A stretch of 64,000 nt of DNA from a virus, in IMG/VR virus record IMGVR_UViG_3300046816_000078; one strand, 5' to 3'. Shown piece by piece: positions 20,752 to 62,928 of this stretch. A program made the translations under genes and the position numbers. Position 1 is the first letter of the stretch, and each line of letters starts with the position of its first letter. Under the pieces are notes generated by a model. It was not told where the DNA came from. It made no database searches and saw only the letters and a program-made list of their open reading frames with translations.

Positions 20752-20769
20752 GTTACTTCCCTGCTTCCC

Positions 20770-21616: not shown

Positions 21617-21637
21617 AACCTCGTAGTCCTTTCTGGT

Positions 21638-22905: not shown

Positions 22906-22917
22906 TATGTAAATCCT

Positions 22918-24233: not shown

Positions 24234-27200
24234 TATGTCTCACCCGCTACCTTACTCGATGTCTTAGATTTACCGGACACAGCGCCCCTTGCCTTATCTG
24301 TTTCGGTCACGGTCGTATGGGATTTAGCACCGTGGGTTACAGTCGCGCCCTTTTCACCGCTGCCTGCAACAATGGCGTGGTAAGGGTGAATAACTCCTAG
24401 CGTGCCAGTTCCGAACGCTAGTGAAATCGCGGAGATTTGAGGCTTCTTAGCCCTCGAACTACCAGAGCCCAAGAATTGCTGAGATCCCGTAGCAAGCAAC
24501 GTAGCCTTTTTGACGATAACGCCGCCAGCACCAGACCAGGATTCGCTACCCGTACCGTTAGGCGCAGGCTTCTTAGCTGTTACCGAACCAGTTCCGGCCA
24601 GCCCACCCGCGTTGCCTGTTCCGTTAGCAGCAGGCTTCTTAGCCCTGCTACTTCCAGTTGCAGTAAACTGCTCGACGCCTGTACCATTAGCGGCTGGCTT
24701 CTTAACAGAGGTAGAACCGCTACCAATAGCTCCCGCCAAACCTGTACCGCTTGCGCTAGGCTTTTTAACCGTCGCGCTGCCAGTAGCAGAGTTGCCCGGA
24801 ATCGAGCCAGTGCCCGAAATCGCAGGCTTCTTCGCGTTAACGGCTGCGGTAGCCGTGTAGACTTCGACGCCAGCACCAGAAACACTAGTCTTTTTACAAG
24901 TAATCTGGCCGGTACCCGTCAATCCTGCGGGAGTGTTAGTCCCGGTACCGCTCGCAGCAGTTTTCTTGATAGAACTACTACCGTTTGCGGTGAAGGTTTC
25001 GACGCCGGTACCAGATGCAGCGGGCTTTTTGAGAGCCGAACTGCCAGAACCATAGAAGTTTGTACCTGTTCCAGAAGCGCTAGGCTTCTTAACGTTAGAC
25101 GAACCTGTCGCCGTAAACGTTTCGACGCCAGTTCCAGATGCGGCAGGCTTCTTAACAGAAGAACTGCCAGTAGCCGAAATGCCTGGAATTGAACCAGTAC
25201 CATTAGCCGCAGGCTTCTTAACGCTAGAACTTCCCGAACCGTTAAAGTTCGTTCCCGTTCCATTGGCCGCAGGCTTCTTGACGTTACTCGAACCAGTAGC
25301 AGTAAATGTCTCTGTACCAGATCCGCTAGCCGCAGGCTTCTTAACAGCACTACTGCCAGTAGCCCAGAAGTTAGTCCCAGTACCAGAAGCGCTAGGCTTC
25401 TTAGCACGCGGAGCACCCGTAGCTGTGAATACTTCTACGCCTGTTCCATTAGCCGCAGGCTTCTTAACGCTAGAACTACCAGAGCCCCAGAAGTTTGTTC
25501 CAGTTCCGGCTGCTGCTGGCTTCTTAACGTTCGATGAACCTGTTGCAGTAAATGTCTCGGTACCGCTACCAGATGCGGCAGGCTTCTTAAGTGAAGAACT
25601 TCCAGTAGCCCAGAAGTTTGTACCTGTTCCATTAGCTGCTGGCTTCTTAGCGCGAGGTGCGCCAGTAGCCAGGAATTGCTCAGTGCCGGTACCCGATGCA
25701 ACCATTTTCTTAACAGTGCTGCTGCCCGAACCGTTAAAGTTCGTGCCTATTCCTGCCGCTGCTGGTTTCTTAGCGAGTGATGAACCTGTCGCTAGGAATT
25801 GCTCGGTACCACTACCAGAAGCGCTAGGCTTCTTGGCAGATGGTGCGCCCGTAGCGGAGAATTGCTCTGTACCAGAGCCATTAGCGCTAGGCTTCTTACA
25901 CTGTACTGAACCAGATCCAGAAGCTCCTGATGCGGGCAGCGTTACAGTCGTATCCAGCTTTATCGGATAGGGACTTGACGTTGTATCCGTATACAAAATA
26001 GGCAATGCATCAGCGAGTCTATCTTGCGTCTGAGATATTGCGGGCACATGAGGCCACCTAGGATTAGATGAACCGCCACCCGCAACTAGAGTTGTGCTGC
26101 CACTCGCTGACGTAAACGGAGATACAAGCGTGGCATACTTAAGGTTGCCCGATGCAACAGCATCGGTCCAAAGTACCCAAACCTTGTTAGACACATCTAC
26201 CGCAAGTGCGATATCTACGGGAGCTGTTGATGATCCGGCAGAATCTACGATAACGCGAGTTGCAAAACTCATCGTAGGCGGGGAACCAGCCGACCAGGTA
26301 CCGTGCCAGTAAGTTACGCCGAACCAGGTAGGACCGCCCGAATTCTGGCAGGCCCTCGATACGTGAACATCGCCGGTATTCTCATTGATTACAATTTGAG
26401 GACCACCGAAGCCACCGGCATCCGAAAACTGATCGAAGACAGTCCTTCCGCCCCAGTTAGCCAGGGCCGGTGTGGACGAATCAGAAAGTGCGGCATAGTG
26501 CAACTGAGAATTAGCGCCGTAAACGACAACAGTTCCGCCCAGTGCAGTACTATGACGTGCAGCCACCTGGACAATAGTTGACCAAGTAGCCGATTCAGAG
26601 AACGTTGCTGTCGTAGCCCATCCGGTAGTAGCAGTCTTATCGGTAGTGTAAGAATAGGATATCCGGTCTGTGCCCGAAATCCCATCCCACCAGAACACGA
26701 TAACATACGTACCATTATAGACGATAGTGCTCTGAATGGTGGCCGCGTTAGTGGTACCGGCAATTAGCGTTGCGGTATCCCATGTAAAAGTAGACCCGTT
26801 ATACGTACCATGCCGTACATGCAAGGCAGGTCCCGCGCCACCGGATGCATCATCATAAGAACTGGAAATCCAGATATCAGATGAGGTTCCCGACGAGTTA
26901 TCCGTCCAGATACTAATAGCGTCTTCGGCGGTCGTGATAAGGTTGGTAGTGACAGGTGCAGTTAGCGGATTAGTAACCTGCGCTATCTGCCCCGTCGTGC
27001 CATTCCAGTAACCGATAATCGCAGAACCATCGAATAGGTACGCGATCTTATCCGCAGAGGGACGCTGCAAAGCCTTAGCCGACGTACTTGTAGCCAGCGG
27101 ACCGGGAATAGATCCCGAACCAGAAGCGCTAGGCTTCTTAACAGTCGCGCTGCCAGTGCCCGTAATAGGAACAACAACTAGTGTATTAGAATAACCAGCA

Positions 27201-27943
27201 GGTTGCTGGAATGGGGCACCAGGACCAAGCTTGCGCATCAATGGCGCGAATCGTACTGGCGGGAAACGGAGTGCCTGCCCCGGAGTCAACATAATGGCTT
27301 CGGTAACATCGACACCGAAGTCGTTTTGGTCCAGCGCTAGTACAGCCGTAGCCGTGCCGGGAGCCGTGACATTGACGCCCCAGCCTATGCCAAATGACCC
27401 GCCGTTTCCCCAGGTTTGCCCTGCGGACGTTGCAGTATTACTCAACGTTCCTGGCATGGTGATAGCTGTAGAGACGCCACCGTTACCGGATGGCTGTCCA
27501 CCATAACCCCAGATAGTAGCATCCCCGGAACCGGCGACAGTCAGCGCGGGAGCGGTAAGAACCGTATTGCGGGTAGCATTGGTGAACTCAGCGCTGTTCG
27601 CTACCGACCCGACACCCAGAGAGCTGCGAATGACATAAACGAATCCGCCAGCCCAGGTTGTTGTACCAAAGGTAACTGTCCACTGGGATGGGTCGGTGGT
27701 AGCTGAGCCGGGAGTGCCCGCCGCGATCCGGTAACTCAGCAGGAAGTTGTCATTAGCCGACGCGGCACCGCTTGTATTCCGCAGCGTGGTGAAACTAGCC
27801 TGCGTGATGGTGCTGGCGAAAGCGGAAACGACCAGGATTATCAGGTCGCCGCCCTGCACCCCAGCCGGAAGGGCGGGTGTGTTACCAGTTAGGGCACTGT
27901 TGGCGATCTGCCCCGAATTAGATCCGACAAACGACCAGCTCAT
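24233..27943 (-). CDS. Giant repeat-containing virion-associated protein (N-terminal domain, propeller-like core, about 24 x 20-aa KKPAASGTG repeats)
   Basis: 1236-aa ORF. The C-terminal roughly 490 aa are tandem repeats of consensus KKPAA[SN]GTG[TV]E.FTATGSS.V alternating with KKPAA.GTGTNF.GSGSS.V. Confidence 0.8.
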   Translation of the reverse strand: MSWSFVGSNSGQIANSALTGNTPALPAGVQGGDLIILVVSAFASTITQASFTTLRNTSGAASANDNFLLSYRIAAGTPGSATTDPSQWTVTFGTTTWAGGFVYVIRSSLGVGSVANSAEFTNATRNTVLTAPALTVAGSGDATIWGYGGQPSGNGGVSTAITMPGTLSNTATSAGQTWGNGGSFGIGWGVNVTAPGTATAVLALDQNDFGVDVTEAIMLTPGQALRFPPVRFAPLMRKLGPGAPFQQPAGYSNTLVVVPITGTGSATVKKPSASGSGSIPGPLATSTSAKALQRPSADKIAYLFDGSAIIGYWNGTTGQIAQVTNPLTAPVTTNLITTAEDAISIWTDNSSGTSSDIWISSSYDDASGGAGPALHVRHGTYNGSTFTWDTATLIAGTTNAATIQSTIVYNGTYVIVFWWDGISGTDRISYSYTTDKTATTGWATTATFSESATWSTIVQVAARHSTALGGTVVVYGANSQLHYAALSDSSTPALANWGGRTVFDQFSDAGGFGGPQIVINENTGDVHVSRACQNSGGPTWFGVTYWHGTWSAGSPPTMSFATRVIVDSAGSSTAPVDIALAVDVSNKVWVLWTDAVASGNLKYATLVSPFTSASGSTTLVAGGGSSNPRWPHVPAISQTQDRLADALPILYTDTTSSPYPIKLDTTVTLPASGASGSGSVQCKKPSANGSGTEQFSATGAPSAKKPSASGSGTEQFLATGSSLAKKPAAAGIGTNFNGSGSSTVKKMVASGTGTEQFLATGAPRAKKPAANGTGTNFWATGSSSLKKPAASGSGTETFTATGSSNVKKPAAAGTGTNFWGSGSSSVKKPAANGTGVEVFTATGAPRAKKPSASGTGTNFWATGSSAVKKPAASGSGTETFTATGSSNVKKPAANGTGTNFNGSGSSSVKKPAANGTGSIPGISATGSSSVKKPAASGTGVETFTATGSSNVKKPSASGTGTNFYGSGSSALKKPAASGTGVETFTANGSSSIKKTAASGTGTNTPAGLTGTGQITCKKTSVSGAGVEVYTATAAVNAKKPAISGTGSIPGNSATGSATVKKPSASGTGLAGAIGSGSTSVKKPAANGTGVEQFTATGSSRAKKPAANGTGNAGGLAGTGSVTAKKPAPNGTGSESWSGAGGVIVKKATLLATGSQQFLGSGSSRAKKPQISAISLAFGTGTLGVIHPYHAIVAGSGEKGATVTHGAKSHTTVTETDKARGAVSGKSKTSSKVAGET
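24445..25910. repeat. Tandem array of about 60-nt coding repeats (about 24 copies)
   Basis: Recurrent GGCTTCTTAAC/GGCTTCTTAGC every 57-66 nt on the plus strand. It generates many spurious alternative-frame ORFs in the track. Confidence 0.85.
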
Positions 27944-27972
27944 AGCTCACCGCCTTTCCAGTAAACGGCGGT

Positions 27973-28548
27973 TTATGCTGTCAATTCAACCCACACATCG
28001 GAAATGGTGACAGAGGGAGTACCCGTGACGCTGCTTAGCGTAACGCCAACATCAATCTGTTGCGGCTGCTGCGTCGGGAATGTACTTACCGTGCGCCCGG
28101 CAGCCGTAATGCCCAGCGGGTAAACAACTCCCGTAGCCGTCAAGCCCGTGTTCATAAACGAGAACACTTCGCCTGAGCCATGGATAATACCATTAGCCGA
28201 AACGCCTGTTGCCAGTGCTCGGAACGTGCCATTGTAAACAGCAGTAAAAGCCCAGGCGGTTGCAGATGCAGACACGGCCATACCTGTAGTAGCGCCAAGC
28301 AAAGTTTCAGAACCAATTGCGGCACCAAGTGCGCCGAAGTAAAAACCGATAGCACATGTAGGGGTTGCCGAAGTCGAGGTAATTTCTCCGTGACACCGGA
28401 TACTAAGCCTAGCCCCTGGCTGATAAACAGAAGCAGGGATAACGGGGAAGTTACTTCCGATAAGCCCCGAAGTCAGGGCAGCGGCAGTTACCGCTGTACC
28501 AGCATTATATGCTTGCGGCTGAGCGGGAAACCTGTAAAGTACAGCCAT
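27973..28548 (-). CDS. Hypothetical structural protein
   Basis: 191-aa Ala/Thr/Gly/Ser-rich beta-type ORF in the head module. Confidence 0.55.
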   Translation of the reverse strand: MAVLYRFPAQPQAYNAGTAVTAAALTSGLIGSNFPVIPASVYQPGARLSIRCHGEITSTSATPTCAIGFYFGALGAAIGSETLLGATTGMAVSASATAWAFTAVYNGTFRALATGVSANGIIHGSGEVFSFMNTGLTATGVVYPLGITAAGRTVSTFPTQQPQQIDVGVTLSSVTGTPSVTISDVWVELTA

Positions 28549-28567
28549 GCCGTTCCTTTCTTAAAAA

Positions 28568-29011
28568 TTATTCAGGCATTACAAGCGTGAAGCTGGAAAG
28601 CGTGATGTTAGCACCAGAGCTGAATGCAACGGAGTTGAAGTTAATGTCTGCGCCAGAGGTTCCGACCGAACCGGCCGCGAGTAGCACCGCACCAGAACTG
28701 ACAAGGCCAAATGTGGCAGCAGTTCCCGACGCTAGCGCCGTAACGGTCGAGGCTGAAAAGCTTGCGGTAACCGTCCAGATCTTAGAAGGAAAAGATCCCG
28801 TCAGTGAGCCAGTACCCGCCGAACCAAAGGCGGTAGCGCTGAATGTAAACTCCGCTAGCTTAGTTCCTGAGAATGCTACATCTGGGTCCTTACCACTCGA
28901 CACCTGGGCATCCGTCCAAATCTGTAGCTTGCCAGCATTGAACATTGCCTTTAGCGCATCGTTCTGTGTAATCACCGCACCAGCAGCAGCGGTATTAAAG
29001 TATGTCGTCAT
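28568..29011 (-). CDS. Hypothetical structural protein
   Basis: 147-aa ORF of similar composition to the downstream neighbour. Confidence 0.55.
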   Translation of the reverse strand: MTTYFNTAAAGAVITQNDALKAMFNAGKLQIWTDAQVSSGKDPDVAFSGTKLAEFTFSATAFGSAGTGSLTGSFPSKIWTVTASFSASTVTALASGTAATFGLVSSGAVLLAAGSVGTSGADINFNSVAFSSGANITLSSFTLVMPE

Positions 29012-29016
29012 TTAAA

Positions 29017-29190
29017 TTATTCCTTTTCTGCCATAGTTGCGGAAACAGACGGAAGTGTAATGCTGCCAGAACCGACGATATCCATAATAGGCTGTTCCTT
29101 GTATTCATGCGGCAGCGGGCGCTTACGTGCCTTTCGCTGATCTTCGCGCTTAGGCGTAGGCTTACCCTTCGGCGGTGTCGTTGCTGCCAT
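29017..29190 (-). CDS. Hypothetical protein (57 aa)
   Basis: MAATTPPKGKPTPKREDQRKARKRPLPHEYKEQPIMDIVGSGSITLPSVSATMAEKE. TAATG overlap with the upstream gene. Confidence 0.45.
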   Translation of the reverse strand: MAATTPPKGKPTPKREDQRKARKRPLPHEYKEQPIMDIVGSGSITLPSVSATMAEKE

Positions 29191-29471
29191 TACTTGTCCG
29201 CGCTCTTAGCGGCTGGCTTAGCGGCTGGCTTAGGAGCGGCCTTGCTAGCTGCGGGCCTAGCAGGACGCTTAGCCGGTTCGTCGGGCTTAGATTCGGTAGT
29301 CTGCTGCTTGGGTACTGAGCGCCCCTTGGGAGCCGCTGTAGCTTCGTCTGCGGCGTCAGGATCGAATCCTAGACTACGGAGCACCACGGCAAGTTCTGCC
29401 CTCTTAGCGGGCTCCTGAGTGGCTGCGAGCTTGCGCCGTAGCGGCGCGATACGTGGGTCTTCGTTTGCCAT
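29190..29471 (-). CDS. Hypothetical protein with Ala/Lys/Pro-rich tail
   Basis: 93 aa. The C-terminus AKRPARPAASKAAPKPAAKPAAKSADK is histone H1-like low complexity. Confidence 0.55.
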   Translation of the reverse strand: MANEDPRIAPLRRKLAATQEPAKRAELAVVLRSLGFDPDAADEATAAPKGRSVPKQQTTESKPDEPAKRPARPAASKAAPKPAAKPAAKSADK

Positions 29472-29475
29472 GTTC

Positions 29476-29979
29476 TTATCCTAGCTTGAGTAGATCGGCT
29501 GTATTAGTAACGTTCGTGTTCAGGGAGTAAGTGACCTTGATGTATCGGTAACGCTGACCGACAGGAATCACCTTAACTGCCGTAGTTGCAGTAGTGATTA
29601 CAAACGGAGCCGCTGTAACGGTGCCCAGTGATCCGATATCCGCATAGTTAAGCGGGGCGAAAGACGAGTTATCTACCGAACCGTTAATGGTATAGGTACA
29701 AGTTGGAGTAGCACCGATTGTTGTCGTAACTCGCACAAGAACAGGCAGGCTCTTTACTTCCGCGACGCCAGAATCCCAAGTATTGGTCGTGTCTGCGTTA
29801 GTTGCCTGACCAGTTCCCAGTACAAATGCAGTAGGGAACCCAGTAAGCGTCGGAGTAATGGCGTTCAAATTAAGGAACTGCACAATCTCGGTAAACTTGC
29901 CGGGATTGTTCACAAGTGGAGTGCCGTAAAGTGACATTTCCAGCCACTTTTCGTAAAGGTTGTCAGTGTAAGCGGTCAT
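29476..29979 (-). CDS. Hypothetical virion protein
   Basis: 167-aa ORF in the head module. Confidence 0.55.
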   Translation of the reverse strand: MTAYTDNLYEKWLEMSLYGTPLVNNPGKFTEIVQFLNLNAITPTLTGFPTAFVLGTGQATNADTTNTWDSGVAEVKSLPVLVRVTTTIGATPTCTYTINGSVDNSSFAPLNYADIGSLGTVTAAPFVITTATTAVKVIPVGQRYRYIKVTYSLNTNVTNTADLLKLG

Positions 29980-29990
29980 CTAGTGTCCTT

Positions 29991-30617
29991 TCAAGATATC
30001 ATTTCTTTGTTAATTTCATCAATACCAGGGAATCGAGGATACGCCCTAGCATGAATTTCCCTGAGCCGGGCGTCGGTATCTTGAAGGAAATCCCAGTCTT
30101 TCCGCCATTCCTGCCACCATGCAAGATCGTAAGTATGGTGGTGCTTAATAACCCCGTGAGTGTGGGGAAAGTCTACGCCGTGCGCTTCAAAGGCTCGTAC
30201 CATTCGCACGTCTAGCTGATTCCAGCAGCCCTTATTGGCACAGTGACGACAAGGTTGCCACGGTACATCTTCGCAGATGAATTCCTTGGGCTTAACCACC
30301 TGCTGCAACTTCACGGAAAACTTTGCGCACGAAAGACCGTGATAAACTAGCTTCCGGTAAGGCGACGGCAAAGTCTTACAACCGAAAGTACACCACGGTT
30401 CGTCACAATCGAGAAACGAAGGAATCACCTCTGCGGTAATTTCCTTATCGCCCTCGATATTTACGAGAGTTTCTTCGCCGGTCCAGTGCGCGGTGATAAC
30501 TTCACCGTAACCATACAATCCTTTTGTTTCGATGAATTCACAATCGGGTGCGAACTTATCGATTGCTTCCACAGTCTTCGGGTGAGGTTCGCTGGAATAG
30601 CAGCAAATAATTTTCAT
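29991..30617 (-). CDS. Cys/His-rich hypothetical protein
   Basis: Start at MKIICCYSS, 4 nt after the GH5 stop. Clusters CDEPWCTFGC, CRHCANKGC and HTHGVIKHHH suggest metal binding. Confidence 0.55.
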   Translation of the reverse strand: MKIICCYSSEPHPKTVEAIDKFAPDCEFIETKGLYGYGEVITAHWTGEETLVNIEGDKEITAEVIPSFLDCDEPWCTFGCKTLPSPYRKLVYHGLSCAKFSVKLQQVVKPKEFICEDVPWQPCRHCANKGCWNQLDVRMVRAFEAHGVDFPHTHGVIKHHHTYDLAWWQEWRKDWDFLQDTDARLREIHARAYPRFPGIDEINKEMIS

Positions 30618-30621
30618 TGAA

Positions 30622-31716
30622 TTATCCCTGGTTTTGAAGTGCCCTGAGTTGACACATAACATCTAGGTTGGTCGGATTAGTCCAGTCAGCTTTAAGCAAG
30701 CCGAATCCTTCTCTGGCCCCTTCTGCTTCTTTAAGGACGTTAGTTGTTGGCTGATGCCCGACATGAGCTGTTCCGTCAAGAAGCCACCAGCACACGTCTA
30801 GGTCACGCTCGCGGGCATATGTAAAGAAGTGCCCCACCCACGTATCACCCAGACCCAGAGGATTAACGATATCAATGCCGAACTCACCAATCCATACCGG
30901 AGCGATATTATCCCTAACGAGATATCCGCCGTTAGCATCCATTGCGGCCTTGTAATCGTCGTAGGTCATGCCGCCAGTATGAAACCAGGCGTAGTCATGC
31001 ATCGAGTAAACTGTCTTGTTCGCTGACATAACAGGCTGAGACGCCGCGTTTTTAAGATTCGTAGCATAACTCAGACCTTCGCAGAAAAGAAGTGAGGTTG
31101 GGTCAACACTATGGATCATTAGGCCAGCTTTTTCGTAGGCTAGGCGGAAATCAGTTTTAGAATTCTGGTCACCCCACGTTGGCTCATATGTCACACCGGC
31201 CGTAGTTGTATTGCGAGGCTCATTCTTTAGATCGTATCCAATGACCAGCGGATTACCCTTAAAGGTCATTGCCATTTTAACCCAGCCATTGTAAAACTTT
31301 GACGCGGGCCAGTTGCTATTCCACCACAAACCGTTACCGTCAATATCAGCGCAACATACGCCGGGAAAGAGCAGACTACAATTGGGGATAACCATGATGC
31401 CATGATTCGTCAGAGACTTAACACAAGCCTGATATACCTGGAAAGGATTAGCACCGCTAAGATCAGGATTAGCCTTAATAAATGTATCGTCTACTGGAGT
31501 AGACACGTCGAACATCTTAAGGGCGAAAGTAAGACGGATAGAGTTAAGCCCATATGATGCAATTGTATCGGCTAGCTGGTCACGGTGCCGAAGGTGAAGA
31601 CCGCCCGGAACCATTACATCATTATGAGCATTCCAGTTCGCGCCAATAAGCTTTACGCGCTGACCAGCAGAATCAACAATGTACCGGCCACTGACAGAAA
31701 GCGGGGTCTTAACCAT
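30622..31716 (-). CDS. Glycoside hydrolase family 5-like (cellulase/mannanase superfamily)
   Basis: GYDLKNEPRN (acid/base NEP) and VWIGEFG (nucleophile) motifs at GH5-like spacing. Start at MVKTPLS with GGAGG SD. Confidence 0.7.
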   Translation of the reverse strand: MVKTPLSVSGRYIVDSAGQRVKLIGANWNAHNDVMVPGGLHLRHRDQLADTIASYGLNSIRLTFALKMFDVSTPVDDTFIKANPDLSGANPFQVYQACVKSLTNHGIMVIPNCSLLFPGVCCADIDGNGLWWNSNWPASKFYNGWVKMAMTFKGNPLVIGYDLKNEPRNTTTAGVTYEPTWGDQNSKTDFRLAYEKAGLMIHSVDPTSLLFCEGLSYATNLKNAASQPVMSANKTVYSMHDYAWFHTGGMTYDDYKAAMDANGGYLVRDNIAPVWIGEFGIDIVNPLGLGDTWVGHFFTYARERDLDVCWWLLDGTAHVGHQPTTNVLKEAEGAREGFGLLKADWTNPTNLDVMCQLRALQNQG

Positions 31717-31805
31717 AATCCTCCAATTATCATTTCTTTGAGCCACACGGAAATGCTGGGATTTCTCCCAGCACAACCGAATGATTCCAAGAACCAAAAT
31801 ACAAC

Positions 31806-33260
31806 TTAGAATCCCGCAGGCGCAGCAAGTGCAGCACCGTTGATCTTCTGAATTGCCAGGCCGTAGCGCTGGTAGGTATATGCAAAGTAGCCATAAACCA
31901 CAAGCAACACGCCAAGGGACGCTGCTGCGGGCTGTTCGGCCCTAATGTAAACGGGGTTACCGGCATCTTCCCAAAGGTGACATTCCTGCTGCGGAACCAC
32001 GAAAATGTGGTCCTGGGTACCACCCGTAGGGGCACCAGCCAGTCCAACAGTAGTCACGTTAGCGTCGGTTACAACCTGCATACCGTTAGGCATAACACCG
32101 CTAGAGCCCTGATTGTACGGGGCCGCGGAGTTAGCACCAGCAGCCTTAGCGTCGGGGGCGACGCCCGGCTGAGTAAACGCAGGCCAGGTGCTAGTCAGAA
32201 GCGACTGGAGCCAGAACCACCGGCGAGGGTGCATAATGACGTGAGTCGGATGGGCCAGCCCACGGGTCGCAGTATCACTCTGCGATGCCGCACCCATAAT
32301 CGCGGGATACAGCGTAGGCAGGTCAGCAGTGGTAATCGCTGTAGTAGCGTTACCTACTGCGTCAAGACCCGTAGTAGCCTGGTTCAGCAGAGTGCTGTCA
32401 AGGCTAGTTGCGTACTGACGGAAAAGGTCCTGCATTACAACGTCTTCGATACCAGTTCCACGCTCAATTGCCTGACGTGAAATAGTCTGCTGGCCAGCAG
32501 CAGTCTGCACGTTAAAGGTCAGCAGAGTGTCGTCCATAGGCGTTGCCTGGACGGCGTTAGATTCTGATGCCTGTAGTGCGGTACCCGAAGCGGTCGTAAT
32601 ACGCGAGATATTCAGCGACATACCCGAAGCAGGCAGAGGGTGCTGATTACACATGTCCGCGAATGGACGCAGGTTGGCTACTGCCGGTGCAACCATATCG
32701 ATAAGGTACTGGGGAACAACCAGACCGGAGAAAGCCGAAGTTCCGACTTCACCGACACGCAGTTCCATACCCGCACTGGCGCGGTTAATCTGTTCCTCGC
32801 GCATGTGCTGCTGTAGACGACCAGCGGCGCGAACGTCGTTAGTCGTGTACTGGCGTACAACGTCGTTCAGGAACATCTTACCAGTCGGGTCATTGCCCTT
32901 GTGATAAGTGGTTTCCTCATGGCCGACGCTAACGCTAGCACGCTGGGTAGTAGCGTCACGCTGCGGGAGTCCCGCTGGCGTAGTAGCCTTAAGCAGGTCA
33001 TCATCGGTACGAGACTCATCGGCCTGTACCTGACGTGCCTTAGCCAGCTTACGCCCAATGGACGCCTGGTCAACGCGAGAATTCTGCACAGTATCCTTGA
33101 GCGAGTCAAAGCGTGCATCTTCCTCGGGAGACAGGTCGGTGCGCATTTCCTGCTGAGTGGTAGCTAGAATAAGCTCCATCTCCTTGCGGGCGCGCATTTC
33201 CCGCTGCTGAGCCGCTTCCAGCTCAATTTCCATGGAAGCGACAAGTTCCTTAATATTCAT
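31806..33260 (-). CDS. Major capsid protein, HK97 fold with N-terminal coiled-coil delta domain
   Basis: 484 aa. N-terminal about 100 aa helical and charged, scaffold-like. Follows the protease and portal. Confidence 0.85.
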   Translation of the reverse strand: MNIKELVASMEIELEAAQQREMRARKEMELILATTQQEMRTDLSPEEDARFDSLKDTVQNSRVDQASIGRKLAKARQVQADESRTDDDLLKATTPAGLPQRDATTQRASVSVGHEETTYHKGNDPTGKMFLNDVVRQYTTNDVRAAGRLQQHMREEQINRASAGMELRVGEVGTSAFSGLVVPQYLIDMVAPAVANLRPFADMCNQHPLPASGMSLNISRITTASGTALQASESNAVQATPMDDTLLTFNVQTAAGQQTISRQAIERGTGIEDVVMQDLFRQYATSLDSTLLNQATTGLDAVGNATTAITTADLPTLYPAIMGAASQSDTATRGLAHPTHVIMHPRRWFWLQSLLTSTWPAFTQPGVAPDAKAAGANSAAPYNQGSSGVMPNGMQVVTDANVTTVGLAGAPTGGTQDHIFVVPQQECHLWEDAGNPVYIRAEQPAAASLGVLLVVYGYFAYTYQRYGLAIQKINGAALAAPAGF

Positions 33261-48222: not shown

Positions 48223-48371
48223 AGTGATATCCTTTATGTAGAGACGCCAAAACGCACTAATGCGGTGAGGCATTAGCGCGATTGGGTTGTTCAATTGTCA
48301 TGTTTTGAAGAGAACTCTTCAAATTGCGGAGATTACCGCGAACGCGAATGCGTTTTATGAATTTTTATGAG

Positions 48372-48444
48372 CTGACTAGATTGGACTCGAACCAATAACC
48401 CTCGCCTTAACAGGGCGGTACTTTGCCGATTAAGCTACTAGCCA
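48372..48444 (-). tRNA. tRNA-Asn (GTT)
   Basis: Acceptor TGGCTAG/CTAGTCA, anticodon loop CTGTTAA, T-arm ATTGG-TTCGAGT-CCAAT. Confidence 0.8.
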
Positions 48445-48456
48445 ATGTAAAACTAG

Positions 48457-48530
48457 TACCCCTTATTGGATTTGAACCAATAACCTCTAGGATCTAAGCC
48501 TAGCGCCTCTGCCAATTGGGCTAAAGGGGC
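48457..48530 (-). tRNA. tRNA with Leu anticodon TAG but short (5-nt) variable loop
   Basis: Acceptor GCCCCTT/AAGGGGT (G1-U72), A73, Leu-type D-loop AATTGGCAGA. Anticodon stem CTAGG/CCTAG with loop CTTAGAT. T-arm ATTGG-TTCAAAT-CCAAT. Confidence 0.65.
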
Positions 48531-48627
48531 ATTAAAGATTGTAGCCTTTCCGCCGTACTGTAGGCGCGGAATTAAGAATACGTCTATTCATAGGTAGTGG
48601 TCTGCACACCGCATTCGTACAATCTAG

Positions 48628-48701
48628 CGCATCTAATCGGACTCGAACCGATAATTCAGGTTTCGTAGACCTGTGTGTTATCCGATTACTACTATAGATG
48701 C
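48628..48701 (-). tRNA. tRNA-Arg (ACG)
   Basis: Acceptor GCATCTA/TAGATGC, anticodon stem CAGGT/ACCTG with loop CTACGAA, T-loop TTCGAGT. The D-stem is weak. Confidence 0.75.
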
Positions 48702-48795
48702 ATTGTAAAACTGTGCCAATGCCTCACCGTCAATGTCTGCGACATTCCCCGTAGGGCACACTAGCTTGAGCTTAGGTTATCGGCACTGGCACTAG

Positions 48796-48870
48796 TAGGC
48801 GTAAAAGGATTTGAACCTCTGATCTTTTCCTTATCAGGGAACTGCTTTTACCGGACTAAGCTATACGCCT
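48796..48870 (-). tRNA. tRNA-Ile (GAT)
   Basis: Acceptor AGGCGTA/TACGCCT, anticodon loop CTGATAA, T-loop TTCAAAT. Confidence 0.8.
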
Positions 48871-48874
48871 AAAG

Positions 48875-48949
48875 CGGGACTAACGGGATTTGAACCCGTG
48901 GCTTCTACCGTGACAAGGTAGCACTCTAACCTAACTGAGTTATAGCCCC
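48875..48949 (-). tRNA. tRNA-Asp (GTC)
   Basis: Acceptor GGGGCTA/TAGTCCC, anticodon stem CTACC/GGTAG with loop TTGTCAC, T-arm ACGGG-TTCAAAT-CCCGT. Confidence 0.85.
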
Positions 48950-48970
48950 ATTGTATTAAATTGTAAGTGG

Positions 48971-49042
48971 AGGCGGAAACGGGATTTGCACCCGTCTGGA
49001 AAGGTGTTGCAAGCCTTCGCCTAACTGCTCAGCCATTCCGCC
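48971..49042 (-). tRNA. tRNA-Cys (GCA), CCA encoded (48968-48970)
   Basis: Acceptor GGCGGAA/TTCCGCC, U73 discriminator, anticodon loop TTGCAAC, T-loop TGCAAAT. Confidence 0.75.
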
Positions 49043-49046
49043 ATAG

Positions 49047-49120
49047 TGGGACCGAAAGGAATTGAACCTATGGCCTATTGGATTTCACCCAATCGCTCTA
49101 CCTAGCTGAGCTACAGCCCC
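49047..49120 (-). tRNA. tRNA-Phe (GAA)
   Basis: Acceptor GGGGCTG/CGGTCCC, D-arm TAGCTCAGCTAGGTAGAGC, anticodon stem ATTGG/CCAAT with loop GTGAAAT. Confidence 0.85.
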
Positions 49121-49146
49121 ATGTAATTCGTATTTAATTGTATTAG

Positions 49147-49218
49147 TCGGGATGGAAAGAATCGAACTTTCTATCTCCTGGTTCCAGGCCAGGCACGCTA
49201 CCATTACACCACATCCCG
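49147..49218 (-). tRNA. tRNA-Pro (TGG), apparent C33
   Basis: C1-G72 and A73 (Pro-like). Anticodon stem CCTGG/CCAGG with loop CCTGGAA. T-arm GAAAG-TTCGATT-CTTTC. Confidence 0.65.
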
Positions 49219-49259
49219 TTATATCGCTCAATGGCGATATCGATCAATTGTAATACTAG

Positions 49260-49330
49260 AGCGGGTAGCCGGTATCGAACCGGCAAAATCTGCTTGGAAG
49301 GCAGATGGTTTACCGTTAGCCTATACCCGC
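49260..49330 (-). tRNA. tRNA-Gly (TCC)
   Basis: Acceptor GCGGGTA/TACCCGC, U73, anticodon stem TCTGC/GCAGA with loop CTTCCAA. Confidence 0.85.
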
Positions 49331-49417
49331 GTGACTTAAACGGTCAGCAGTCGCGTAGCGTGCTGCTGTCCTATTCAGTTGTTTATTTAATTGTATCATA
49401 CGGTACTGACATTCTAG

Positions 49418-49491
49418 AGCCCAGTATCGGAATTGAACCGATGACCTGCCGATTACAAAACGGCTGCTCTCCGCATCTGAGCTAACCGGGC
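49418..49491 (-). tRNA. tRNA-Thr (TGT)
   Basis: Acceptor GCCCGGT/ACTGGGC, D-arm TAGCTCAGATGCGGAGAGC, anticodon loop TTTGTAA, T-arm ATCGG-TTCAATT-CCGAT. Confidence 0.8.
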
Positions 49492-49698
49492 ATGTGCGGT
49501 TTTACCTATACAACCGCCAAGGTGACAAACTAATCCAGGTAGTGAAGTAACCCGCTACCCTTTAGATATCGGATCACCGCCTAGGTAATCAAACCCCAAT
49601 ACGACCAAACTCTTGAATAAGATTGCATATCGTTCACATAATCCCCATTCTGTAGTCTAGCTATTGGATAGATTCCTAGGTTGTTAAATTGGTAATGG

Positions 49699-49770
49699 CT
49701 CCCGCGTCTAGAGTCGAACTAGAATTGGCAGGTTCAGGGCCTGCTGTCCTTCCATTTGAACGAAACGGGA
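49699..49770 (-). tRNA. tRNA-Gln (CTG), apparent C33, CCA encoded (49696-49698)
   Basis: U1-A72 and G73 (Gln-like). Anticodon stem GCAGG/CCTGC with loop CCCTGAA. T-arm TCTAG-TTCGACT-CTAGA. Confidence 0.65.
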
Positions 49771-49785
49771 TTAGGCGTTAAAGAA

Positions 49786-49917
49786 TTAACGCCGCGTTAC
49801 AGCAGAAACTACGATTACAACCAGCAGAATAATAGCAACCCACCATAGGACGTGAAGCGCAAATCCTGCGCCTGCAAATAGCAGCAGCAATAGCAGCAGT
49901 AGAATTAGAAGTAGCAT
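49786..49917 (-). CDS. Small Leu-rich membrane protein (43 aa)
   Basis: MLLLILLLLLLLLFAGAGFALHVLWWVAIILLVVIVVSAVTRR with AAAGGGGGG SD. Preferred over the overlapping 70-aa track ORF in another frame. Confidence 0.45.
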   Translation of the reverse strand: MLLLILLLLLLLLFAGAGFALHVLWWVAIILLVVIVVSAVTRR

Positions 49918-49931
49918 ATTTCCCCCCTTTC

Positions 49932-50147
49932 TTAACGCCTAGGTGGCAAAGGACAAACAGCAGGCAGCAACTCGGGTGCAATGAAATCAACTAGATCCGT
50001 CCACTCTGTTCCGCCATCGTCAACATTTCCGTTGATTGGATTTCCGTCCATCTTTCGCCTGTTAGCAAAGAATGCGGCAGACATCATATCATCGGTGTCC
50101 ATATCGTTCTGTTCACAATAGCTCACATAATCTTGTACCGTGGTCAT
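49932..50147 (-). CDS. Hypothetical acidic protein
   Basis: 71-aa ORF with a strong GGGAGG SD, embedded in the tRNA array. Confidence 0.6.
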   Translation of the reverse strand: MTTVQDYVSYCEQNDMDTDDMMSAAFFANRRKMDGNPINGNVDDGGTEWTDLVDFIAPELLPAVCPLPPRR

Positions 50148-50169
50148 GTGATACCTCCCTTATCAATAG

Positions 50170-50240
50170 CTGGAAATGTAGGAATCGAACCCACGTCAAC
50201 GGGTTTGGAAGCCGTTGTGTTACCACTACACCAATCTCCA
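50170..50240 (-). tRNA. tRNA-Trp (CCA)
   Basis: Acceptor TGGAGAT/ATTTCCA, D-stem GTGT/ACAC, anticodon loop TTCCAAA, T-arm GTGGG-TTCGATT-CCTAC. Confidence 0.8.
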
Positions 50241-50362
50241 ATGCGGATTACACTTAGCTCTTTACCGGCCGGATTATCTGCACCGTGTAATCCTTCCCTG
50301 TATGGTCGTGAGAATCATACAGGGATCTTAGACCTAGATCACGAGGAAATAGGTGGTCTAAA

Positions 50363-50512
50363 TTAGTACCGCGAGCGGCGCTTTGCCGGGGTTTCCTTAG
50401 CCTTATCGGCCTTGTAATGCTTAAGGAAATTCAGTTCACCCCAGGTAAGTGTTACCTCATTGCCATCACTAACGAACGTAATGGTCCTATCATCAAAATC
50501 TACAACAGTCAT
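50363..50512 (-). CDS. Hypothetical protein (49 aa)
   Basis: MTVVDFDDRTITFVSDGNEVTLTWGELNFLKHYKADKAKETPAKRRSRY with AGGGAG SD. Confidence 0.45.
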   Translation of the reverse strand: MTVVDFDDRTITFVSDGNEVTLTWGELNFLKHYKADKAKETPAKRRSRY

Positions 50513-50682
50513 TGCGACTCCCTAACGGGCATCCCTTAATTAATGTGCCCTAGGTAGTAAAGGGATTCATACCTACCCAGGATTCTAAAAGTTTATGGGT
50601 CGTTTGCCCTCGACCTAATTGCCGCCTCGCTAGTTTATAGTCTGCCTATCTCAAGACGTTCCGCCCAGACTTATTCAATTAG

Positions 50683-50755
50683 TAGCGGGTACCGGCTTTG
50701 CTCCGGTGGTTTCAGTTTATGAGGCTGACGTGTTACTGAACTACACTAACCCGCG
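50683..50755 (-). tRNA. tRNA-Met-like (CAT), atypical
   Basis: Anticodon loop CTCATAA. C1-U72 mismatch, T-loop AGCAAAG instead of TTCRANY, and a D-loop without GG. Confidence 0.45.
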
Positions 50756-50818
50756 ATGAGGGGATTTCCTATTTAGATTATAGTAGTTTTTGGAGATCCC
50801 TTAAAGTCTAACTACTCG

Positions 50819-50900
50819 GGTGTCCTACGAGATTCGCACTCGCTATTGCATTACGCACGGATTCACAGTCCGATCCCTCAGCTATTTGGGTCAAGACACC
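50819..50900 (-). tRNA. tRNA-His (GTG) with encoded G-1 and enlarged (about 13-nt) variable region
   Basis: 8-bp GGTGTCTT/AGGACACC acceptor (G-1:C73) closely resembling E. coli tRNA-His as recalled. Anticodon loop CTGTGAA, T-loop TGCGAAT. 82 nt long. Confidence 0.6.
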
Positions 50901-50968
50901 ATAGCGTCCAACGGACGCGATAATGATTACCAATCGTAAGATGGTAATCAGCATTACTTAAAGATTAG

Positions 50969-51145
50969 TTAGTCAGAACTGATAAGAACTAGCAACCCAA
51001 AACCAGCCGGGGCTATCTTAATAGATGTTACTGGCATCTCTCCGCGATTCCTGATAATCTCTGATGTAAGGTCAGGAACCTTAAGGAATACGTCTAGGTC
51101 ATCTGGCAGCTTGTGAACTGCTGCTTTGAATTCTGCCATATTCAT
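50969..51145 (-). CDS. Hypothetical protein (58 aa)
   Basis: Start at MNMAEFKAAV (GGAAG SD). The longer track ORF would overlap tRNA-Ala. Confidence 0.4.
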   Translation of the reverse strand: MNMAEFKAAVHKLPDDLDVFLKVPDLTSEIIRNRGEMPVTSIKIAPAGFGLLVLISSD

Positions 51146-51237
51146 ATCTGGACTTCCAATCTGTAATAGGTGATAGTTTCTCTGGGTATCAATCTGATAC
51201 CTCGGACAGTCACTAACAAACATCCTGTTTTTATTCG

Positions 51238-51311
51238 TGGAGCATAACGGATTTGAACCGATGACATTCTGATTGCAAATCAGACGCTCTACCAAGCTGA
51301 GCTAATGCCCC
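51238..51311 (-). tRNA. tRNA-Ala (TGC)
   Basis: Acceptor GGGGCAT/ATGCTCC with the G3-U70 identity pair. Anticodon stem TCTGA/TCAGA with loop TTTGCAA. Confidence 0.85.
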
Positions 51312-51409
51312 ATTGAAAGAACTATTTCACTATCATTCTAGTCCGTTGGCACGGTGGATAGTTTCGTTTGGCTGCCAAACCTCTACGCGATTAATCCATA
51401 GTTCTCAAG

Positions 51410-51491
51410 TGCCGGATACTGGATTTGCACCAATGAAACCAGAGGTAACGGTTTTACAAACCGCGAGCTTTGTCTACTTGCATAATCCGGC
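51410..51491 (-). tRNA. tRNA-Tyr (GTA), class II with long variable arm
   Basis: Acceptor GCCGGAT/ATCCGGC, anticodon loop TTGTAAA, variable arm TACCTCTGGTTTC, T-loop TGCAAAT. Confidence 0.8.
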
Positions 51492-55912: not shown

Positions 55913-57064
55913 ATGAGCACTCGCGAAATCGATCTCACTCCTGCTGAATTCGCACTCACCTCCAACAAGATCGCCAAGCTTAACGCCCGCGCCGCTAAGC
56001 GTGGCTGGACTGGAATCCTTACCGTTAGCGGCGAGGCTTTCACCGAAGTTACCGACAATGGCGTTGGCCTCAAGCGTGAGCGTCAGATGGTACACGTTAC
56101 CATTTCCGGCAATCCCCCGAAGTACGACGGCTGGACTTTCCTCGCTCGCGCCGATTGGGCCGATGGCGGAATGGTCCTGTTCACCGCGCCCGGTGTCGAT
56201 GGCATCGATCGCTCGGGAATTACCGAAGGTTCGTGCGATCACTGCGGAATCAACCGCTATCGCAAGAGCACTTACATTGTCCGCAGTGACAATGGTGAGC
56301 AGGTCCAAGTCGGATCTACTTGCCTAAAGGATTTCCTCGGGTGGAACACTAACCCGGTGTGGGTCATGCCGCCGTCCGACAATGACCTGTTTGGCGAGGG
56401 TGGCTTTGGCCATTCGGCCCCGGTCTATTCCGTCGATACCATTCTGGCCGCTGCCTGGGCTTGCATTGAGCAGTTCGGTTATGTTCGCTCCGGTGATGAG
56501 GGCGCGACTAAGGGAACGGTGCTTGCCGTACTCGATCCGCGTACCCCTGCTGAGCGTGAGCTTGCCCAGAAGATTCTGCCGCACGTTGCGGAGTCTGCCA
56601 GTGCGGCCACCATGATTCGCGAATTCATTCTGTCGGATGAATTCTCGGGCTATGGCGAGTACGTCACGAACCTTAAGAACATCGCTCGCAGCGAATTCGT
56701 TGAGCCGCGCTTTGTCGGCTTCCTCGTTTCCGCTCCGCAGGCATGGGCCAAGTCTCGCGAGCGTTCGCTTATCAAGCAGCGCGAGAATAACGAGCTTACC
56801 AATGAATTCCTTGGCGAGATCAAGGATAAGTTGGAGCTTCCCGTGACGCTCAAGTCCATTCGCTTTATCGAAGGACAGTTCGGCGTTACCTCGCTCTATT
56901 CCTTCGTGACCGATGATGGCCACCTGGTTAAGTGGTTCTCAAGTCGCGCCGTGTTCCGCGATGGTGACGTTGACCGCAGCTTCACTCTCAAGGGTACCGT
57001 GCGTAAGCATGACGAGTACAACGGGACCAAGAGTACCGTTCTTACCCGTTGCTCGGAAGTCTGA
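55913..57064 (+). CDS. Hypothetical protein with central Cys cluster
   Basis: 383-aa ORF with GAAAGG SD. CDHCG...STC suggests a zinc site. The two antisense track ORFs were rejected. Confidence 0.7.
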   Translation: MSTREIDLTPAEFALTSNKIAKLNARAAKRGWTGILTVSGEAFTEVTDNGVGLKRERQMVHVTISGNPPKYDGWTFLARADWADGGMVLFTAPGVDGIDRSGITEGSCDHCGINRYRKSTYIVRSDNGEQVQVGSTCLKDFLGWNTNPVWVMPPSDNDLFGEGGFGHSAPVYSVDTILAAAWACIEQFGYVRSGDEGATKGTVLAVLDPRTPAERELAQKILPHVAESASAATMIREFILSDEFSGYGEYVTNLKNIARSEFVEPRFVGFLVSAPQAWAKSRERSLIKQRENNELTNEFLGEIKDKLELPVTLKSIRFIEGQFGVTSLYSFVTDDGHLVKWFSSRAVFRDGDVDRSFTLKGTVRKHDEYNGTKSTVLTRCSEV

Positions 57065-57701: not shown

Positions 57702-58649
57702 TAGTGATGTAAGGCAAGACGAACGGGCAGGTCGGGACTGCGGCCGAAGGATCTCTAAGTCGGGATCTCGCGGTGAGAAGTCCACCTTTGATGGTTCGTC
57801 GCAGTAAGCCGAAACGAACGGCTAACCTCGGTAGTGGGGCCAGGGTGCGATTGGGCACCGCCACGGGAAAGGTTAGCAACCATAAACTAAACCACAAGCC
57901 AAAGCGGAACACGTGGCTAAGGGAATTCGCATGGTGGATTCCCGGCCCGGCGAGGTGACTCAATGGGCTTAGCAAGTGCCAGGTCTTGTGGATTGCGGCT
58001 AGTTTCGATTGTCCATAGGGTAATCGTGTTTCGGGACTTAGCCGCGTAAGCCAAACTGAGAAAGTCCTTCTTCTTTATCTAGCTTTAGCGGCCTACGGGC
58101 ATCGCACATAGTAGAGACAGAGACTAGCTCAATGGCCGGTGATAACGGTTGTACGTGGATTGTTAGGGACGCTTAGGCTCGGGCTTCCGCCCGGATAGCA
58201 ACCGAAACAATGACGATTACGCGGGTTCGATTCCCGCATTCACCGCTAGTGCGGGCAGGCAAAGAACCGGGAGCCGTCGCTGAATGCGATAACGGCAGGG
58301 GGTTTGTCCGCACATAAAGTTGGACAATGGGAACCGTCAAGAGCCTTTAGCCATAGATTAACCCTAGGCTGGCAGCTACGGCACATAAGCGCGATAAGCA
58401 GACAGCAACCGAAAGGGCCTGTTTGCTGCCTTGCGTGAGCGGTGTTTATGAACTGTATTCAGTGGGCGAATGGTGAAAGATCCGCGTTAGAGCGGGCGCG
58501 TTTATCGCAAGGGAGCGAAGCGGTTAAAACGGCTGACAATAGCTGACGGTATCCGGGGCGTGCGCACAATCCGGGGAGAATAAATAAGACGATAGGTCGG
58601 CCCATTGTTCTCAACTCTTATCCACCACACAGCAGAAAGGACAGGCTAA
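57702..58649 (+). ncRNA. About 950-nt ORF-poor, hairpin-rich transcribed region downstream of P3
   Basis: No SD-led ORF. Contains a conserved leader (57702-57810), the tRNA-like module at 58138-58245 and long hairpins such as GTGCGG...CCGCAC at 58249-58312. Confidence 0.5.
58138..58245 (+). ncRNA. tRNA-like / tmRNA-TLD-like module
   Basis: 5' GGTGATAACGGTTGTACG resembles a tmRNA 5' end. T-arm GCGGG-TTCGATT-CCCGC followed by ATTCACC-G. Interior hairpin CGGGC-TTCC-GCCCG. No anticodon arm and no G3-U70. Confidence 0.4.
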
Positions 58650-58807: not shown

Positions 58808-58881
58808 GGGCCGGTATTCCAATAGGCAGAGAAACCGGATTCAAACCCCGGACAGTGAGGGTTCAAATCCCTCCCGGCCTA
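58808..58881 (+). tRNA. tRNA with Leu anticodon CAA but short variable loop
   Basis: Acceptor GGGCCGG/CCGGCCT (G1-U72), A73, Leu-type D-loop AATAGGCAGAG. Anticodon loop TTCAAAC with an A31-C39 mismatch. T-arm GAGGG-TTCAAAT-CCCTC. Confidence 0.6.
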
Positions 58882-58893
58882 CTATAAAAACTT

Positions 58894-62696: not shown

Positions 62697-62849
62697 GGGG
62701 CTGAAAGGCTATCGACGTAATTCCTAATGCGGGTCCGAATCCCGCCGCGCTGATCGAGAATGAAATGGTGCTTGTCGCCTATCAAAGCGCGATCGTTTAA
62801 CAGGCAAGACTGGGAATTGCGGACTACGGTTCAATTCCGTACAGCTCCA
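62697..62849 (+). ncRNA. Miniature tmRNA-like RNA (tRNA-Ala-like domain, P2 helix, short tag-like ORF)
   Basis: 5' GGGGCTGAAAGGCTATCGACG and 3' TACGG-TTCAATT-CCGTA-CAGCTCC-A give a 7-bp acceptor with G3-U70. 9-bp helix CGTAATTCC/GGAATTGCG. Internal frame GCC...TAA (62744-62800) encodes AALIENEMVLVAYQSAIV. Confidence 0.6.
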
Positions 62850-62928
62850 CAGGTCACCCACCGTCATATCGGGACGCTGATATGATCAGGTCCGTAAGTG
62901 GGTTGCGGGTAACGACGGTTACCCTAAA

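Follow-up and report, generated by a model that had tools for sequence, protein, structure and literature searches.

The two short leucine-anticodon tRNA genes of the phage described here are very probably functional type I leucine tRNAs, from a family with chromosomal members in Actinomycetota and with a wide distribution in phages and mobile tRNA arrays, as judged from comparative sequence analysis. Both genes have the structure of a tRNA-Leu with a 5-nt variable loop and belong to this family, the family is linked exclusively to leucine anticodons, and the phage genome uses CUA and UUG with their standard meaning.

Structure of the two short-arm leucine tRNA genes

Within the window (i.e. 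the whole 64,000-nt stretch of viral DNA analysed here) ARAGORN identified 21 tRNA genes, two of which carry leucine anticodons (Leu(tag), 48456-48530, minus strand; Leu(caa), 58808-58882, plus strand). Both were also recovered at full length by the Rfam tRNA covariance model (gathering score 29), with scores of 62.6 bits (E 9e-12) for the UAG gene and 50.6 bits (E 2e-8) for the CAA gene; these matches are far beyond chance, although the latter score falls below those of most other tRNAs of the window. The two genes are delimited as follows:

48457-48530, minus strand: tRNA-Leu, anticodon UAG, type I (ARAGORN, Rfam tRNA model and masked type I Leu profile)
58808-58881, plus strand: tRNA-Leu, anticodon CAA, type I (ARAGORN, Rfam tRNA model and masked type I Leu profile)

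Read against the Rfam model alignment, both genes are 74 nt long up to N73 and combine a 7-bp acceptor stem (with G1·U72 and A73), U8 and A14, a 3-bp D stem with a C13·A22 mismatch, a D loop of the form AAU(U/A)GGCAG (giving A15, G18, G19, C20 and A20a), 7-nt anticodon loops (CUUAGAU in the UAG gene, which has A37, and UUCAAAC in the CAA gene) and a UUCAAAU T loop. The variable loop is 5 nt long, ends in U48 and contains no hairpin arm (AGGUU in the UAG gene, ACAGU in the CAA gene); these two loops are, respectively, the commonest and the second-commonest ones among the viral members of the type I family. The D arm of the UAG gene (GCCCAAUUGGCAGAGGC) is identical to the consensus of the family, and that of the CAA gene (UUCCAAUAGGCAGAGAA) represents its UUCC...GAGAA variant. 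The pair 3-70 is C3-G70 in one gene and G3-C70 in the other, CCA is encoded in neither (both read A73-C-U-A), and the CAA gene has one mismatch in its anticodon stem (A31·C39), a variant that is found in 13 of 181 family members. The set of nucleotides used by LeuRS of the E. coli type (A73, A15-U48, G18G19, A20a and U54-A58) is complete in both genes. An earlier note on this DNA had folded the two genes by hand and had read them as tRNAs with the anticodons TAG and CAA, each with A73, a G1·U72 wobble, a Leu-type D loop and a 5-nt variable region within a total of 74 nt. The anticodons are borne out by ARAGORN and by the Rfam model, and the remaining features by the Rfam model alignment; the manual folds were right, as neither program returned a long-arm (>10 nt) fold or another anticodon for either gene.

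Genomic context and likely host

The window is part of the genome of a tailed phage and encodes a terminase, a portal protein, a protease, a major capsid protein and a tape measure protein (with capsid and tail genes at 13501-33260). It also encodes DNA polymerase I and an RNR (ribonucleotide reductase) of class II. Its terminase, for which an exact look-up gave no record, shares ~33-37% identity with terminases from phages of Rhodococcus, Arthrobacter and Mycobacterium, and a relative possesses a Pup-family gene; on the basis of this similarity and of the Pup-family gene, an actinobacterial host appears likely. When the 18-kb region with the tRNAs was compared by megablast with the phage collection, no relative emerged, and a 56-nt match to a tRNA-Lys was the only one obtained. 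The UAG gene, at a distance of 12 nt from tRNA-Asn, is the second one of a tightly packed minus-strand tRNA array that has two sugar-transferase ORFs and the RNR downstream of it, and the CAA gene is found among scattered plus-strand tRNAs and small ORFs. The array and its long-arm member are the following:

48371-51491, minus strand: tRNA array Tyr-Ala-Met-Trp-Gln-Thr-Gly-Pro-Phe-Cys-Asp-Ile-Arg-Leu(UAG)-Asn (ARAGORN)
51409-51491, minus strand: tRNA-Tyr(GUA), 83 nt, with a long variable region (ARAGORN, only at -ps90)

The tRNA-Tyr, which the earlier note had described as keeping its long arm, does so, albeit as a gene seen only at the relaxed ARAGORN threshold and without a match by the Rfam tRNA model at 51409-51491 (minus strand). 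It is near-identical to a tRNA-Tyr that is detected at the default ARAGORN threshold in a related contig (L248), from which it differs in the anticodon stem. This tRNA-Tyr(GUA) also has an unusual UGCAAAU T loop. Among the long ORFs of the window no aminoacyl-tRNA synthetase gene was detected; the ORF at 55913-57064, suspected of encoding RtcB since a relative has such a gene, had no Pfam match.

A family of type I leucine tRNAs in phages and Actinomycetota

From 50,697 phage records, a blastn search with the UAG gene retrieved annotated tRNA-Leu genes, in alignments that run without gaps across the variable region. Short tRNA-Leu genes are annotated in Gordonia phage Keelan (75 nt), the T5-like Pectobacterium phage DU_PP_V (77 nt), the T4-like Vibrio phage phi-ST2 (74 nt), Lactobacillus phage Semele (73 and 74 nt) and Mycobacterium prophi86-1 (adjoining tag and caa genes of 76 nt each). 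These genes resemble those of the window in A73, the 5-nt variable loop, the anticodons (tag or caa) and, frequently, G1·U72, are 77-91% identical to the UAG gene over the aligned part, and belong to phages of other lineages and hosts, none of which is close to the phage of the window. The D arm GCCCAAYUGGCAGAGGC is common to Keelan, DU_PP_V, phi-ST2 and the tag gene of prophi86-1, and variants of it occur in the genes of Semele and in the caa gene of prophi86-1. Phage T5 was considered as a further carrier and rejected (its tRNA-Leu(UAG) has 85 nt). Literature searches returned papers on Streptomyces and on Mycobacterium, and none that describes the short-arm tRNA-Leu specifically as a phage feature, although such genes have annotations in GenBank.

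A scan with a pattern that prescribed the D arm and a spacing to the T loop as in class I, and that allowed any anticodon, located the type I pattern in at least 119 viral contigs and in at least 120 bacterial genome contigs. The bacterial matches listed stem overwhelmingly from Actinomycetota (Nocardia, Gordonia, Mycobacterium, Rhodococcus, Corynebacterium, Amycolatopsis, Arthrobacter and others), and at 102 of the 120 listed loci the leucine tRNA is the sole tRNA within 8 kb. UAA is the most frequent isoacceptor among the bacterial matches listed, and at the two bacterial loci that were checked the flanks consist of ordinary cellular genes (e.g. ABC transporters). Since the loci mostly stand alone and, where checked, have cellular flanks, the short-arm tRNA-Leu is a normal chromosomal gene in Actinomycetota. 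The assumption that bacterial and known phage tRNA-Leu genes are class II is thus wrong on both counts, and with it falls the premise that a short-arm tRNA-Leu would be novel, such genes being already annotated in unrelated published phages.

The short-arm body is tied to leucine

All of the 131 viral matches listed have leucine anticodons (tag 57, taa 34, caa 26, gag 6, cag 5 and aag 3), and so do all of the 121 bacterial ones. The same holds for the D-arm variant UUCCAAUWGGCAGAGAA, i.e. the type found in the CAA gene of the window, which was recovered with a leucine anticodon in 23 of 23 cases from 23 viral contigs. In total, the anticodon-free searches listed 275 tRNAs, every one of which has a leucine anticodon, with all six of these in use. 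As leucine is the only thing that the CUN and UUR boxes share, this link is hard to explain unless the tRNA body itself specifies leucine.

The features that accompany the short body were summarised for 181 non-redundant members of 74 nt (the genes of the window being left out). A73 is present in all 181 and U48 in 180 of them, neither having been imposed by the search pattern, and the stems are 88-100% paired, most of them with 3-6 pair types; the conservation of the D arm is partly a matter of construction, because the samples were chosen by a D-arm pattern. A profile of these 181 bodies, built with the anticodon masked, assigned 52.2 bits to the UAG gene and 41.2 bits to the CAA gene, as compared to 20.1 bits for the best other tRNA of the window and to a median of 10.4 bits (95th percentile 28.3, maximum 43.0) for 770 non-Leu class I viral tRNAs. 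The top scorers among the latter (a UCA-anticodon tRNA, some tRNA-Thr and tRNA-Arg) show the ordinary D stem of 4 bp and no resemblance to tRNA-Leu. Furthermore, at the same viral loci the tRNA-Ser genes are almost uniformly long (56 long, 1 short), and 25 of the tRNA-Tyr genes are long and 3 short. SerRS needs the long arm, whereas LeuRS does not, and the retention of long arms in tRNA-Ser fits this difference.

CUA and UUG stand at leucine positions

The meaning of the two codons was assessed by aligning the RNR of the window with 98 homologues (60-72% identity) and by determining the share of leucine in the columns that correspond to each codon:

CUA (n=11): 76% Leu in homologues
UUG (n=21, including the start codon): 68% Leu in homologues
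CUG (n=8): 73% Leu in homologues
CUU (n=6): 71% Leu in homologues
CUC (n=6): 68% Leu in homologues

CUA and UUG are therefore placed at leucine columns as often as the other leucine codons, and several of them lie at columns in which all of the 98 homologues have leucine; it follows that the genome is written with CUA and UUG as leucine. The two codons, which had been taken to be rare, are in fact in heavy use: in 19 long ORFs CUA represents 17% and UUG 18% of the 719 leucine codons (35% together), and UUA is used once in 719.

Conservation and exchange of leucine tRNA genes in other phages

A related viral contig (L274), whose RNR is 94% identical to that of the window, has its tRNA genes in the same order (Gly-Pro-Phe-Cys-Asp-Ile-Arg-Leu(tag)-Asn). 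Its Leu(tag) gene differs from that of the window by a compensatory change (U7-A66 to C7-G66), by a U72 to C72 replacement that converts G1·U72 into G1-C72, and by one additional U in the D loop; the flanks have diverged between the two contigs while the gene was kept. A kept gene with a compensatory change between diverged flanks is the pattern of a working tRNA and, as judged from this comparison, the UAG gene is under purifying selection. The G1-C72 pair of the L274 orthologue further implies that G1·U72 is not essential. For the CAA gene, no orthologue was recovered in a close relative, and a strict scan of metagenomes (for its D arm, anticodon loop and T loop combined) gave no matches. 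Two further contigs, L247 and L249 (those of the RNR relatives P0009 and P0002), are without tRNAs, and L248 has a related tRNA array with no Leu gene in the part examined.

Among phages that were picked by their RNR only, we observed a locus with a tRNA-Leu(UAA) whose acceptor stem, anticodon loop and T arm are constant, and which is present as a type I gene (75 nt) in six contigs (L281-L285 and L294) and as a type II gene (83-84 nt) in six others (L288-L293). Between the two versions, D arm and variable region are swapped as a unit. This exchange at a single locus suggests that the two architectures are functionally interchangeable for leucine decoding.

Probable charging by leucyl-tRNA synthetase

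The closest experimental reference is S. coelicolor, in which a type I tRNA-Leu(CAA) exists beside four type II isoacceptors and is essential (its gene could not be deleted), and in which the only LeuRS charges tRNAs of both types with leucine (Fan, Huang, Ji & Wang 2019, NAR 47:6369; PMC6614811). [quoted passage not shown] In view of the failure of E. coli LeuRS, charging depends on the host enzyme and is not to be assumed for every host. Behra et al. (2019; PMC6582537) also noted a short variable loop, in their case for the tRNA-Leu(TAG) in a tRNA cluster of mycobacteria. For E. coli LeuRS, both the arm and the anticodon are dispensable, the determinants being A73, A15-U48, G18G19 and A20a (Giegé & Eriani 2023; PMC9976931).

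Compared by description, the genes of the window resemble the S. coelicolor type I tRNA-Leu(CAA) in the leucine anticodon, the 5-nt variable loop, U8-A14, A73 and the coexistence with class II tRNAs, and differ from it in being phage-borne and in comprising both a UAG and a CAA gene, whereas the S. coelicolor gene is chromosomal and essential. With the canonical class II tRNA-Leu they share A73, A15-U48, G18G19, A20a, the anticodons and a D stem of 3 bp in which positions 13 and 22 are mismatched, and the D loops are similar (AAUUGGYAGA). G1·U72 is likewise found in E. coli tRNA-Leu(UAA). The genes of the window differ from the class II form in that they have a 5-nt loop in place of an arm of >10 nt and C instead of G at position 13. 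Animal mitochondrial type I tRNA-Leu, which also combines a short variable loop and A73 with charging by LeuRS in the absence of the long arm, belongs to another compartment, is structurally degenerate and has no sequence relationship with the genes of the window.

Of the two readings offered by the earlier note, the one by which LeuRS still charges these molecules appears well supported, given that the determinants outside the arm are present, that the family is confined to leucine anticodons and that a type I tRNA-Leu is leucylated in S. coelicolor. We propose that both genes would be transcribed within the phage tRNA clusters, that the transcripts would be trimmed and provided with CCA by host enzymes, and that they would then be charged with leucine by the LeuRS of the (probably actinobacterial) host. 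This enzyme would ignore the anticodon and the long arm and would read the elbow and core (U8-A14, A15-U48, G18G19 and A20a), together with the acceptor end and the length of the 5-nt loop. The UAG tRNA would decode CUA, and probably CUG and other CUN codons by U34 wobble, as leucine, and the CAA tRNA would decode UUG as leucine; the benefit to the phage would presumably lie in the supply of tRNAs for the 35% of its leucine codons that are CUA or UUG.

Alternative explanations

The alternative that survives best, though we consider it unlikely, is that the leucine tRNAs are kept mainly because their short arm evades host nucleases or toxins that attack tRNA-Leu, in which case they would act as anti-defence replacements and not as codon supply. 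That phage tRNAs can serve as a counter-defence is an established idea in the field, and type I leucine tRNAs are frequent in phages and in mobile tRNA arrays. In addition, G1·U72 is commoner in arrays (8 of 16) and in viral copies (47 of 140) than in stand-alone chromosomal ones (12 of 75), and A37 adjoins UAG in 20 of 55 viral copies and in none of the 12 stand-alone chromosomal ones (all of which have G37), which we regard as a weak hint. However, no nuclease that targets tRNA-Leu via its long arm was identified in this analysis, the architecture is not specific to phages (as it belongs to a normal chromosomal gene in Actinomycetota), and the heavy use of CUA and UUG fits a plain supply of codons; the two roles are, moreover, compatible. 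By a wider form of the same thought, the short arm would be favoured in phages and arrays for preserving LeuRS charging while evading host enzymes that recognise class II tRNA-Leu (e.g. defence nucleases or toxins) or modification requirements such as m1G37, and the module would then have spread to phages of Proteobacteria and Firmicutes, a scenario to which we would likewise give little credence. Were it true, its spread into phages of hosts whose LeuRS does not charge type I tRNAs (as reported for that of E. coli in one test) would imply an unrecognised mechanism of charging or adaptation.

Far less probable is that either of the genes, or each of them, is a tRNA pseudogene in decay and not expressed. 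The lower model score and the single stem mismatch of the CAA gene, as well as the odd T loops in some of the neighbouring tRNAs of the phage, would agree with decay, but both genes lie well over the Rfam threshold with all nucleotides of the tertiary interactions intact, the A31·C39 mismatch recurs within the family, the UAG gene has been kept in L274 with a compensatory change while its flanks diverged, and the matching codons are heavily used by the phage.

The weakest alternative, that the tRNAs receive some amino acid different from leucine and that CUA and/or UUG are reassigned during infection, can draw on the missing long arm (the one feature that sets these genes apart from the textbook bacterial tRNA-Leu) and on the CUN precedents of yeast mitochondria (PMC7609411), and is in our view extremely improbable, since CUA and UUG have normal leucine-column rates in the RNR (with several at columns that are leucine in 98 of 98 homologues), the same body occurs with six leucine anticodons and no others (275 of 275 listed), G3·U70 is absent and the anticodon loops have 7 and not 8 nt, most other synthetases read the anticodon and would refuse UAG or CAA, a type I tRNA-Leu has been leucylated experimentally (PMC6614811), and no synthetase gene was detected among the long ORFs of the window. 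The reassignment proposed as the second reading of the earlier note is therefore unsupported. The mitochondrial tRNAs that do reassign this codon box, i.e. the yeast tRNA-Thr(UAG) and the Ashbya gossypii tRNA-Ala(UAG), resemble the UAG gene in bearing that anticodon on a class I body, but they are marked by G3·U70 or by an anticodon loop of 8 nt, and in their genomes the reassignment is visible at conserved positions, whereas the genes of the window have neither feature and CUA aligns with leucine.

Implications for leucine tRNAs of phages and Actinomycetota

The two genes of the window are ordinary members of an already known family of type I leucine tRNAs; they should be annotated as tRNA-Leu(UAG) and tRNA-Leu(CAA), with the standard code used for translating the genome. 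By extension, a short-arm tRNA-Leu is not to be taken as a sign of codon reassignment by annotation pipelines or in screens for alternative genetic codes. The textbook rule is hereby corrected, in that short-arm leucine tRNAs extend beyond mitochondria and beyond one Streptomyces isoacceptor: Actinomycetota commonly have them as chromosomal genes, phages (including those of Proteobacteria and Firmicutes) commonly carry them, and within one phage lineage the type I and type II versions swap at a single locus.

Distribution of type I tRNA-Leu genes in bacteria and phages

Within the bacterial genome contigs (L127-L246), we observed stand-alone chromosomal type I tRNA-Leu genes (i.e. with a short variable loop) in at least 100 species; among the matches listed, the hosts were mainly Actinomycetota (with a small number of Planctomycetota, cyanobacteria, Acidobacteria and Poribacteria), and UAA was the majority isoacceptor (CAA, UAG and CAG being found too). 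This range is far broader than the single biochemically studied case, the CAA isoacceptor of Streptomyces, whose type I tRNA-Leu was reported to remain uncharged by E. coli LeuRS (PMC6614811). Furthermore, type I tRNA-Leu genes were identified in published phages with proteobacterial and Firmicutes hosts (Pectobacterium phage DU_PP_V, L002; Vibrio phage phi-ST2, L004; Lactobacillus phage Semele, L005), with CCA encoded by those of DU_PP_V and phi-ST2. The Leu(UAG) of phage T5 is class II (85 nt).

Exchange between type I and type II at one phage locus

A set of viral contigs from related phages, chosen by their ribonucleotide reductase (RNR), share a tRNA-Leu(UAA) locus located 3.5-4.9 kb upstream from the RNR end. 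Six of them (L281-L285, L294) carry a type I version of 75 nt, and another six (L288-L293) a type II version of 83-84 nt. The acceptor stem, anticodon loop and T arm do not differ between the versions; the D arm and variable region were exchanged as a module. Moreover, the downstream flank is common to some contigs of both types.

Unusual tRNAs and tRNA-like elements

The presence of U55 in the tRNA T loop is near-universal. It is absent from several tRNAs of the window phage group, in which the relatives' Cys, Ile, Tyr, Gln and Asp tRNAs carry G55 or C55, and such genes receive low scores or are missed by standard detectors:

Window, 48968-49042, 50682-50755 and 51409-51491, all minus strand: tRNAs without U55, with T loops UGCAAAU (Cys and Tyr) and AGCAAAG (Met)
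L274 (related viral contig), 515-589 and 685-759: tRNAs without U55
L248 (related viral contig), 5903-5985, 6755-6827 and 7414-7490: tRNAs without U55

A viral tRNA array on contig L062 includes, at 5798-5873 (minus strand), a class I tRNA whose UCA anticodon would read UGA. This tRNA has A73, its gene encodes CCA, and it is possibly an opal suppressor; the D arm is of the ordinary kind and does not resemble that of the Leu tRNAs.

Two further elements were detected in the window:

62697-62852, plus strand: unusually short tmRNA-like gene (156 nt)
58154-58246, plus strand: tRNA-like element (93 nt), ARAGORN 'tRNA-???' with a 2-base anticodon

The tmRNA-like gene, for which ARAGORN gave no call, matches the Rfam tmRNA model with 52.1 bits (gathering score 47) and has a complete tRNA-like domain (GGGGCUGA...GGUUCAAUUCC...CAGCUCCAC), with approximately 83 nt in place of the model's approximately 300. 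The T arm of the tRNA-like element is well formed (GCGGGUUCGAUUCCCGC), and the element matches the tmRNA model weakly, at 20 bits; its fold stability does not exceed that of shuffled sequences (z = -1.0). The element may represent either a tRNA in decay or the second piece of a tmRNA-like RNA.

Protein-coding genes and codon usage

Two window ORFs encode glycan-degrading functions, possibly with a role in cell-envelope or capsule penetration and lysis:

30622-31797, minus strand: GH5 cellulase-family ORF, immediately downstream of the gene for the major capsid protein
7254-8231, minus strand: GH25 lysozyme with a fibronectin type III domain

In L248, whose RNR is 79% identical to that of the window phage, a 60-aa product (18589-18771) matches the family of Pup (prokaryotic ubiquitin-like protein), which belongs to an actinobacterial system. 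The adjoining gene encodes a DUF7455 protein.

Of the 719 Leu codons in 19 long window ORFs (1388 to 57064), a single one is UUA. The genome has approximately 52% G+C and makes free use of other A/U-rich codons: ATT accounts for 52% of the Ile codons, GAT for 58% of the Asp codons and CTA for 17% of the Leu codons. No tRNA-Leu(UAA) is carried by the window phage. The near-absence of UUA suggests that decoding of this codon is scarce or regulated in the host, as exemplified by bldA in Streptomyces.
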